DNA of 64,000 nucleotides from Candidatus Omnitrophota bacterium (GTDB lineage Bacteria; Omnitrophota; Gorgyraeia; Zapsychrales; JANLHA01), in the NCBI GenBank assembly GCA_963662715.1, contig OY759724.1, positions 588,670 to 652,669 of the forward strand, written 5' to 3'. Positions 2,872-5,800 of this stretch are shown piece by piece (positions within the stretch are counted from its first letter, which is position 1; each line of letters begins with the position of its first letter). Position numbers: made by a program.

Positions 2872-5800
2872 TTAATAATTCGTCTTCGTCAATCTTGATT
2901 TCTGTCCCACTGTATTTGCCATAGAGGACACGATCCCCAACTTTTACTTCCAATGCTTGAATTTTACCGCTATCTAACACTTTCCCTTTACCAACAGCTA
3001 CTATCTTGCCTTCCTGAGGCTTCTCTTTTGCTGTGTCTGGTATAACAATGCCTCCTTTAGTCTTATCTTCGGACTCCAGTGATTTAACAACAATTCGATC
3101 ATGTAATGGTTGTATTTTCATGTTTAATATCTCCCTTGTCTAATCTGTTGATTTCCGTTTCGGGCTTATTGTTGTATGCCCTCACGGGTATCAGTTCCTT
3201 TTCTAATTATTTTAGGTTGTTGGCTCTGATTTAAATTCTGCATCAATAATATCTTCATCATTTTTATTTTTGCCTTGCTCCTGTTCTTGGCTTTGACTGC
3301 CTTTTTGTGATGATGTCTGATACATCTGCTCTGCCATTTTATGGCTAGCCTTTTGAAGAGATTCCATAGCATTTTTAATCCGTGTTTCGTCTTTGGCTTC
3401 AATGGAATCCTTTAATCCTTTGATCGCAGTTTCAATGTTATTTTTATCTTCAGAGCTAACTTTATCTGAAGAATCCCTCAATGACTTTTCAGCTGCATAA
3501 ACAAGACTATTTGCTTGGTTAAGAATTTCTGCTGTCTCCCGCTGTTTTTTATCTTCCTCTGCAAATTTTTCAGATTCCTTAATCATTCGGTCAATTTCAT
3601 CTTTTGATAGCTTTGTTGGTGCCGTTATCGTGATTGACTGCTCTCGTCCCGTTCCTTTATCTTTAGCAGAAGCGTGGACAATGCCATCGCTATCAATATC
3701 AAATGTAACATCGATTTGCGGAATTCCCCTGGGTGCTGTTGGAATACCTGTTAAATTAAAACGGGCTAACTCTGTATTATCTTTTGACATTCCACGTTCA
3801 CCCTGAAGCACCCGGATGGTTACTACAGTTTGATTATCCGCAGCAGTAGAAAATATTTCACTTTTCTTAGTAGGTATAGTCGTATTCTTTTCTATCAATT
3901 TGGTAAAAACACCACCGTCTGTTTCAATCCCTAAAGAAAGCGGCGTCACATCCAATAATAATACATCTTTCGTTTCACCCTTGATAATACCGGATTGGAT
4001 AGCCGCTCCCATTGCCACACATTCCATTGGATCAATGCCGCGTTCAATCTTTTGGCCAACTTCCTTCACGACAAACTCTTGAACAATCGGCATTCTTGTT
4101 GGACCGCCAACTAAAATAATTCTATCTATTTCTATCTTTTGCCCTATCTTGTCTGAAGCGTCTTTAATAGCTTGATGAAGAGGTGCTCGGCATCTCTCAA
4201 CAATAGGGTCGACCAAAGATTCCAATTTTGCTCTTTCGATCGGCATTGTCATATGCTTTGGCCCCATTGCGTCAGCCGTAATAAAGGGCAGATTAATATC
4301 TGTCGAAATTGTACTTGATAGCTCAACCTTTGCTTTTTCGGCTGCTTCTCGAACCCTTTGTATCGCCATTTTGTCATTTTTGAGATCAATACCGGTTTCT
4401 TTTTTAAATTCACTAACAATATAGTCAATGAATGTATTATCCATATCTGTTCCACCAAGCTGATTATCACCATGTGTTGACAAAACTTCAAATGTCGCTG
4501 CCTTACTTGTGTTATCCCACCCCATCTCAAGAATGGTAACGTCCAGGGTTCCACCACCGAAATCAAACACCATAATCTTTTGTTCTCTACCAATTTTATC
4601 AAGCCCATAAGCCAGACACGCGGCCGTCGGCTCATTGATAATTCTCAAAACTTTTAATCCAGCAATCTCTCCGGCGTCTTTGGTTGCCTGTCTCTGACTA
4701 TCGTTGAAATATGCAGGTACAGTTATAACAGCTTCTTCAACAGGCTCACCAAGATATTTCTCTGCATCGGTTTTAATCTTTTGAAGAATAAATGAGCTGA
4801 TTTGTTGGGGCGTATATTCCTTATCAAAGACTTTGAATTTATCGTTTGATCCCATCTTTCGTTTTGCACCAAAAACAGTGCCTTGCGGGTTTATGGAAGC
4901 CTGTCTTTTTGCTGGCTCTCCAATTAACCGTTGTCCATCTTTTGTAAATGCCACAAAAGACGGAAAAGCCTTACCCGAAGCAACACCCGCTCCTTCAGCA
5001 GATGGGATAATTTTCGCTTGCCCACCTTCCAATACAGCTGCTGCTGAGTTCGACGTCCCTAAATCTATTCCTATTGATTTTGCCATGATAACTCACCCCT
5101 TTCGCTTTCAATACTTCATTAAAATTGGCATAAGTTCTTTCTCAAAATTGCTTTTTGAAACAAATGCATCTATTTTTGCCTCCATAAATCGTTTTCTTGT
5201 CTGTCTAAGAAAAATCTCGGTTGTAAGAAATACTCTTACGGCCACCCCTTACGCAACCATAATAAATTTGACCGTCAACATACTGATACCTACTTATCTA
5301 ATAATATTAAATAGAAATTAAACTTCTCTTCTTTCGATAGCATTGTAGCTCTAATCAAAAAACAAACAATTGTACCTAGGTATAATAGGAAAAGTTGAAG
5401 GTTAAAAGAAAAGGGGGAGGGCGATTTTACTGAAGGGGGCTAATGATTATTGCCGATTGGAAGAAACGTATCCGGCTTTTTAAGAGAAACGAGTGAGTTC
5501 GGTAACAGTTTTGGCCTGCATTTTCTGCATGACCCGGCTGCGGTAAGCTTTAATCGTCTGACTAACGGTGCCGAGTTAGGGGCAAAGTTAACAGATATGG
5601 ATGCTTCAATTTTGGGGGAACAAAGAATTTAATAATTTTCAAATATTGCCAATGTTTTTTATCTTTTTTTTTCTATTTAAAATTTGTTGTTTTCGAGCTT
5701 TGTAAGATAAATCTTTTCAATGAGTTCCAACTCCGTTGTACGCCAGTGGGAGGTACGGTCAGCCAAATGTGCGCAGATAAATTTTTCTTGTATCTTCATT

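Follow-up and report, generated by a model that had tools for sequence, protein, structure and literature searches.

A degenerate response regulator-CheY junction upstream of dnaK-groES-groEL in an Omnitrophota genome, probably left by an old segmental duplication

The stretch of DNA analysed here, 64,000 nucleotides (nt) of a Candidatus Omnitrophota bacterium (the window; positions 588,670 to 652,669 of contig OY759724.1, assembly GCA_963662715.1), carries a chaperone operon, dnaK-groES-groEL, and decayed pieces of two signalling genes directly upstream of it. The segment 5205-5560 (~356 base pairs, bp) is best explained as a degenerate copy of the junction between a FixJ/LuxR-type response regulator (RR) gene and a CheY-like receiver gene, left in front of the operon by an old segmental duplication, and we assign this reading a probability of about 0.72. 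All coordinates are those of the window, and relatives labelled L followed by a number are related Omnitrophota loci. The features on which the argument turns are as follows.

5453-5560, minus strand: relic of the RR 3' end, equal to RR codons 173-207 plus the stop codon, with a premature TAA at 5482-5480 and a sharp upstream edge at 5560/5561
5494-5536, minus strand: unusually well-kept core of the relic; its 43 nt have 2 mismatches, the remaining 65 nt of the relic 22 (permutation p = 0.003)
5411-5452, minus strand: copied RR 3' flank, the 42 nt after the RR stop codon, 26/42 identical (62%)
5370-5385, no strand assigned: 16-bp palindrome TTATACCTAGGTACAA, the presumed operator
5342-5369, minus strand: sigma-70-type promoter abutting the palindrome, as read from the sequence, with -35 TTGTTT (5369-5364), a 16-nt spacer and -10 TACAAT (5347-5342)
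5205-5291, minus strand: decayed CheY copy, codons ~14-43, inside the dnaK leader, with stops and at least one frameshift
21697-23142, minus strand: PAS histidine kinase (HK) gene, partner of the RR
21087-21710, minus strand: intact FixJ/LuxR-type RR gene; 21087-21194, plus the flank 21045-21086, corresponds to the relic
20838-20905, minus strand: operator-promoter module in front of the CheY gene, with palindrome 20885-20900 and TTGATT-16-TACACT
20468-20833, minus strand: intact gene for a CheY-like single-domain receiver, of which nt 41-128 are the counterpart of 5291-5205
1204-5086, minus strand: chaperone operon, with dnaK at 3212-5086, groES at 2831-3121 and groEL at 1204-2844

Homology and decay of the response regulator relic

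The relic 5453-5560 and the intact gene end 21087-21194 are identical at 84 of 108 positions (77.8%) when counted exactly in the true register (offset 15634). In a blastn comparison of the window with itself, 5457-5560 aligned to 21091-21194 without gaps at 80.8% over 104 nt (E 8e-21), and laxer scoring extended the match to 5411-5560 against 21045-21194 (73% over 150 nt, E 1e-23), which takes in the RR flank, of a type common to the window RR, L167 and L168 and absent in L161 and L163. Identity reaches 66/81 (81.5%) for 5480-5560 and 82.2% for 5472-5561, and it drops to background level beyond the edge of the relic (13/40, or 32%, for 5561-5600). The first-pass annotation of this DNA had put 5480-5575 at ~85% identity to 21105-21200. 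The homology holds, but the figure was slightly high, the partner was displaced by 9 nt (the correct interval is 21114-21209) and 5561-5575 is not homologous.

At the protein level, amino acids (aa) 169-206 of the RR match the relic at 71% identity (tblastn, E 5.6e-11), and this is the only part of the full RR query to match, with no receiver domain (PF00072) and its phospho-acceptor Asp at the relic locus. As had been described earlier, the relic frame reads ...LGTVSQTIKAYRSRVMQKMQAKTVTELTRFS*, with 31 codons between TAA 5578-5576 and TAA 5482-5480. The latter, premature stop is CAA in the intact RR, and the homology runs on behind it (KAGYVSSN against KAGLISSK). The relic peptide matches Pfam GerE (PF00196) at positions 32-56/57 (E 3e-5, 24.0 bits against a cut-off of 23.5), so that the recognition helix and the last helix are all that is left of a helix-turn-helix (HTH) domain whose positions 1-31 are gone. 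The relic retains 35 of the 207 RR codons; the other 172 are undetectable upstream, and tblastn, tblastx and blastn found no further RR or HK remains in 5561-6330. The residues 'LGTVS' upstream of QTIK include some that are family-like (GT) and were not used as evidence, the DNA beyond 5560 being at background identity. The parent family (FixJ/NarL, with a LuxR-type HTH of the Pfam GerE type) is highly conserved in the Omnitrophota.

Five orthologous RR genes (window, L161, L167, L163 and L168), encoding proteins of 86-100% identity, served as the reference for the pattern of decay. At sites where all five agree, the relic departs from them 17 times, and these private substitutions fall 6/5/6 on the three codon positions; among the variable sites of the orthologues themselves, 16 of 18 are third positions or part of one Ser codon switch. 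Because its homology is truncated, it carries a disabling TAA and its private changes fall evenly over the codon positions, 5453-5560 is a non-functional pseudogene fragment of the RR 3' end.

A probable colinear copy of the whole junction

The homology resumes on the far side of the promoter, within the dnaK leader. An nhmmer search with a profile built from seven CheY 5' regions matched 5291-5205 to model nt 41-128 with a window-wide E of 0.0027-0.007. Across the 128 kb of strand searched, no match other than the three true receiver domains ranked higher, and the piece lies on the right strand and colinear with the module. Pairwise local alignment of CheY within the leader scored 18 against 10.5 ± 1.6 for shuffles, and translated matches occur in two frames (VSVC..., and VKFIMVA*GVAVRVFLTTEIF against LKILMVTYGFTVRTFCSAEEF). 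Across 5205-5560 the RR end, its flank, the module and the CheY start therefore follow one another in the same order and orientation as in the intact 20706-21194. Because the RR flank and the CheY piece sit on either side of the module and are colinear, the comparison supports duplication of the whole RR-CheY junction, more than a promoter and one gene end.

It had been proposed that the arrangement persists intact at 20841-21200, and that the dnaK promoter region is a copy of the CheY-RR promoter that brought along a piece of the neighbouring gene. The intact arrangement is present (module 20838-20905, RR end 21087-21194), but there 186 bp separate the RR stop from the palindrome, against 67 bp in the dnaK copy, from which ~120 bp are absent. 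The duplication also finds support, and is extended by the CheY piece that had not been seen, but it is neither recent nor derived from the present RR allele.

Source and age of the copy

The HK-RR pair is intact and syntenic in L161 and L163-L168, and the order RR-spacer-module-CheY, with a similar 186-bp spacer, also occurs in L168, whose RR is 86% identical; on these grounds the 21-kb locus is taken to represent the source type. At two sites, an AGC Ser codon and T72, the relic agrees with L163 and L168 and differs from the window, L161 and L167 (TCT and C); T9/T15/C66 link it to the window clade and A90/T96 to L167. Since AGC and T72 match the more distant L163 and L168, the copy was not made from the present RR allele. 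Outside its core the relic is ~66% identical to the intact gene, in line with 62% for the flank and ~63% for the CheY part, and this equal decay of relic edges, flank and CheY part points to an old duplication.

The closest relative of the window is L161 (RR 99%). In L161 (10625-14004), L163 (10625-14150) and L167 (10625-15392), three to five genes (a small open reading frame (ORF), GGDEF, a phosphoenolpyruvate (PEP)-utilising enzyme and Zip) lie between RR and CheY and are flanked by two or three module copies; neither the window (20834-21086) nor L168 has them. The possibility that the adjacency in the window is a deletion product was considered and rejected, as the adjacency and spacer of L168 indicate an arrangement that is ancestral or at least old.

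The operator-promoter module

Modules in the window consist of a palindrome followed by a promoter of the type TTGAT(T/A)-16-TACA(A/C)T (TTGTTT in the dnaK copy) and then a gene; the general form is a palindrome T(T/G)(G/A)TACC-NN-GGTACAA abutting a TTGAT(T/A)-16-TACAAT-like promoter. The pattern TTGTACCNRGGTAYAA has three sites in the window (5370, 12371 and 20885) against 0.2 expected. Further sites occur in L161 (10676, 13937), L163 (10718, 14064, 20463), L168 (10801, 14010), L167 (10748, 11275, 15326, 19148) and L092 (4495, 7883). The palindrome, -35 and -10 are kept before genes in five related genomes and L092, modules of the same architecture are found in L161 and L163-L168, and the genes behind them across related Omnitrophota encode CheY-like proteins, small membrane proteins and DnaK. 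In every genome examined one module stands just after the PAS-HK/FixJ-RR pair, 50-120 bp past the RR stop in L161, L163 and L167. The module thus looks like a dispersed family of regulon promoters, and its palindrome is probably the signature of the regulon of the PAS-HK/FixJ-RR two-component system, with the neighbouring FixJ-type RR as the candidate binder because of the constant position after its gene pair. As many dispersed copies exist, similarity between modules does not by itself show copying. Within the window, the CheY-like paralogues at 11245-11667 and 20468-20833, both downstream of module-led operons, share 75.5% DNA identity over 347 nt.

A literature search found no described regulator for the palindrome. 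Its core, GTAC-N4-GTAC, has a superficial likeness to the consensus of the cyanobacterial LexA box, but an SOS (LexA) box is disfavoured by the gene content and by the position upstream of the -35.

The dnaK module lies 256 bp upstream of the dnaK ATG; its -10 is good, and its weak -35 (3/6 of the consensus) is missed by a simple consensus scan. A palindrome abutting a weak -35 and centred near -43 would fit an activator site. No CIRCE/HrcA operator (CIRCE, controlling inverted repeat of chaperone expression) was found at dnaK-groES-groEL and no other promoter-like site in the leader (5087-5340), from which we infer, at somewhat better than even odds, that the operon is transcribed from the copied module. 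In the sequence of events favoured here, an old segmental duplication of the RR-CheY junction would have been followed by loss of ~120 bp of spacer and of the remainder of CheY, leaving the copy directly upstream of dnaK-groES-groEL. The operon would thereby have been wired into the regulon of the palindrome-binding protein under the same promoter type as other stress genes of the island; the neighbouring HK-RR pair would most likely supply the binder, an RR dimer acting as activator centred near -43.

Several routes are equally compatible with this outcome: a dispersed illegitimate copy, a tandem duplication (from mid-RR to the island end) with deletion of the second copy from CheY nt ~130 on, or the entry of a 15.6-kb block that was anchored in the RR by homology and displaced the old junction. 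The promoter capture by illegitimate recombination that was originally suggested is thus one route among equals. A mobile element (insertion sequence or miniature inverted-repeat transposable element) was rejected, since no terminal inverted repeats frame 5205-5560, where only A+T-rich chance pairs were seen, and there is no transposase ORF.

Alternative explanations

The direction of events could also be reversed, with the dnaK-side junction as the original one in a module-CheY-dnaK-groESL operon. A ~15.6-kb block (today 5561-21194), bringing a new RR 3' end together with module, CheY and stress genes as far as DUF3309, would then have entered by recombination, either with one end homologous in the RR and the other illegitimate or as a Campbell-style circle. 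The old RR 3' end would thereby have been shifted downstream and the old CheY would have decayed, with no promoter capture. Such an insertion would account for two copies that are direct repeats bracketing the block, for the same geometry at the MscS relic described below, whose copies bracket exactly TrkH-TrkA, and for the ancestral AGC codon and T72 kept by the relic and lost by the resident RR. A module-receiver-dnaK operon does exist in L092, and orphaned 3' gene ends from homology-facilitated illegitimate recombination are known at type VI secretion system (T6SS) and Rhs loci (PMC5361080). We nevertheless consider this displacement unlikely. The order RR-module-CheY-Transgly_assoc is common to L161, L163, L167 and L168 at 84-98% identity, so that the block is ancestral to the clade and not a recent import; at the MscS locus it is the downstream flank of the intact copy, not that of the relic, that matches the native flank in L167; and the pre-insertion state is seen in no sister genome.

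A number of observations weigh against a single duplication of the junction. The CheY match taken alone is statistically modest (10.9 bits), and with ~120 of the 186 bp of spacer missing, the two halves of the copy could stem from separate events. The dnaK module is 78% identical to the CheY module, no closer than to the module at 12371 (76%), and its palindrome belongs with that of the 12371 copy (TTATACCT type), not with the TTGTACCC type beside the RR. The RR part is better kept (78-81%) than the CheY part, and the near-intact 43-nt core (5494-5536, p = 0.003) is not explained by simple neutral decay. The discontinuous spacer, the palindrome subtype, the equal identity to two different modules and the low CheY score would all fit two unrelated events, in which the dnaK module is an independent member of the regulon, the RR fragment arrived separately and the CheY likeness is noise. 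Such a coincidence is nonetheless improbable, as the three pieces repeat the order, the orientation and roughly the spacing seen at 21 kb, and the chance that the top non-receiver CheY match falls within the 236-bp leader on the right strand is ~0.002.

The clustering of mismatches that leaves the core near-intact, together with a small hairpin GGUCAUGCAGAAAAUGCAGGCC in the predicted fold, could indicate that the fragment is kept for a function, be it through a binding site or RNA element acting in cis from the core, through a short peptide or through the antisense 60-aa ORF (5450-5632). We regard this as very improbable. No Rfam family was found in and around the relic, its fold is no more stable than those of shuffles (z -0.94) and it contains no terminator-like site; the sense strand offers neither a start codon nor an ORF of 30 aa or more, and the antisense ORF begins with TTG and has no Pfam match. 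The core suggests either a patch of gene conversion with the intact RR, which explains it equally well, or a constrained element, and by itself the relic appears to contribute nothing functionally. Chance or low-complexity similarity is refuted by the blastn and tblastn E-values given above, by a GerE score over the gathering threshold and by the normal complexity of the sequence.

Genomic context and relatives of the chaperone operon

Almost every gene of the window lies on the minus strand, and the best relatives are metagenome-assembled genomes of Candidatus Omnitrophota. The coding order around the relic runs from the PAS histidine kinase through the FixJ/LuxR-type RR and the CheY-like single-domain receiver to a run of stress-type genes (BON, Transgly_assoc, DUF3568, DUF748, MscS, TrkH/TrkA, a second CheY, radical SAM, Gly-zipper and DUF3309), followed by ~750 bp without long ORFs, the RR relic region, dnaK, groES, groEL and a YflT-like gene.

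The dnaK of the window is a second, divergent copy, a 644-aa DnaK (P0166) being encoded on the same 3.36-Mb contig. Among 5.8 billion protein sequences no DnaK exceeded 78% identity to it, unlike the neighbouring island genes, which have relatives at 94-98% DNA identity. In L092 a module precedes a receiver gene and dnaK without the RR fragment, which shows that the relic is not integral to the module. DnaK-anchored scans of genome and metagenome collections reached loci whose DnaK is at most 78% identical; none of these carried an RR fragment, and modules occurred only in L092. For L161, L162 and L167, the nearest relatives, the contigs break off within the stress island.

Before groES, the relative with 96% identical GroEL (L172) has a dnaK C-terminus and the one with 93% (L169) an unrelated NarL-type RR; both are on short contigs. 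The intact RR of L169 was rejected as the source of the relic, being a NarL/DegU-type protein whose C-terminus differs, and the DNA upstream of groES shows no homology. Linkage of dnaK-groES(-groEL) was also seen in L170, L171 and L172. A different chaperone upstream signature, absent from the window, occurs at L169 925-1090 and L170 1-150 and consists of a palindrome TAGTCATT(A/T)TGACTA and then ACTTC(G/C)TCCGATATAT. L161 has, at 17336-19264, a different dnaK (73% nt identity to that of the window) that is inserted between DUF748 and MscS and lacks a module; the corresponding place in the window holds no gene.

Upstream of the relic, a conserved mini-ORF, MNEDTRKIYLRTFG-TGA followed by CCGTA, occupies 5762-5803 (minus strand), with the conserved stretch continuing to ~5720, and further copies are found in L161 (~8216-8290 and 3920-3958), L138 (~2300-2362) and L126 (~1131). 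The encoded peptide is similar to the beginning of MiaB/RimO-type enzymes (MSKKIYLRTFGCQMN in L015 and L103) with TGA in place of a Cys codon, and in some copies, not including L126, the likeness extends past the TGA (PYLPLAYNG, PYISLWYDA, PYVPLARDG). It has no Rfam match and could represent a selenocysteine site, a leader peptide or the relic of a gene start.

Recurrent scars at module copies

A second gene-end relic lies beside the third module copy of the window.

12330-12387, minus strand: third module copy, with palindrome 12371-12386
12396-12551, minus strand: MscS 3'-end relic, 84% over 156 nt to the MscS 3' end plus flank at 14958-15113 (E 5e-42), 8-9 bp from the third module

The MscS relic and its source bracket exactly TrkH (13291-14757) and TrkA (12608-13294), and in L167 the MscS gene is natively followed by a module ~190 bp on. 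The relic is 92.7% identical to L163, and the idea that it is the displaced original 3' end was rejected because the flank of the intact copy matches the native L167 flank. A third scar is seen in L161 and L167, where the module copy before a 158-aa gene keeps the CheY ribosome-binding site and six codons (GTGACGATTGATAAAGAATGA). Rearrangement at module copies that drags gene ends along is thus a repeated feature of the stress island.

A more speculative proposal, which we put forward as doubtful, is that the module (~70-100 bp) is the unit by which the Omnitrophota stress regulon grows, its dispersed copies serving as recombination substrates that are duplicated again and again along with parts of adjoining genes and set before new cassettes. 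The three scars would then be fossils of an ongoing and possibly directed expansion, and the 43-nt core a trace of continuing gene conversion. Cases that may mark such growth are dnaK-groESL, the TrkHA-adjacent operon at 12.3 kb and the cassette of the 158-aa and PEP-utilising genes in L161 and L167.

Discussion

The junction copy offers a view, in an uncultivated phylum, of how a chaperone operon may have come under the promoter of a two-component system, with the scar still readable on both sides of that promoter. It also provides a hypothesis for stress regulation in the Omnitrophota, in which the palindrome TTGTACC-NN-GGTACAA would be bound by a FixJ-type regulator whose regulon takes in BON, MscS, Trk, DnaK and GroEL genes, within a stress island that has been rearranged at its promoter modules. 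For annotation, we recommend marking 5453-5560 and 5205-5291 as pseudogene fragments instead of small ORFs.

Compared with FixJ/NarL response regulators (LuxR-type HTH, GerE), the relic derives from the recognition helix and the last helix, lacks a receiver and has a stop inside, and it is therefore a remnant of the family and not a member. Orphaned 3' gene ends also arise by homology-facilitated illegitimate recombination, or C-terminal displacement, in arrays of Rhs, contact-dependent inhibition (CDI) and T6SS effector-immunity genes (PMC5361080). The likeness lies in an intact gene accompanied downstream by a promoterless 3' fragment of the same family in the same orientation and by the former follower gene. 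Those arrays, however, hold polymorphic toxin tips and immunity genes under diversifying selection, whereas the present case is a single relic of a conserved DNA-binding tail, with the same type of C-terminus as all 120 family members inspected and no alternative one.

The closest parallels are cases of promoter capture. At the rnk-citT junction of the E. coli long-term evolution experiment, a promoter was reportedly captured by duplication. Capture by deletion or amplification with microhomology has been found to activate a silent transferred gene (PMC6614815). The example described here differs in being ancient (its edges are ~35% diverged), in having its copies 15.6 kb apart with no visible tandem array and in being known from comparative sequence alone. 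What it has in common with these systems is that an existing promoter, together with fragments of its flanking genes, would have been moved before another gene, the junction fragments forming the diagnostic scar. In that sense the relic is an ordinary kind of genomic scar and, on the favoured reading, a tidy natural example of promoter capture.

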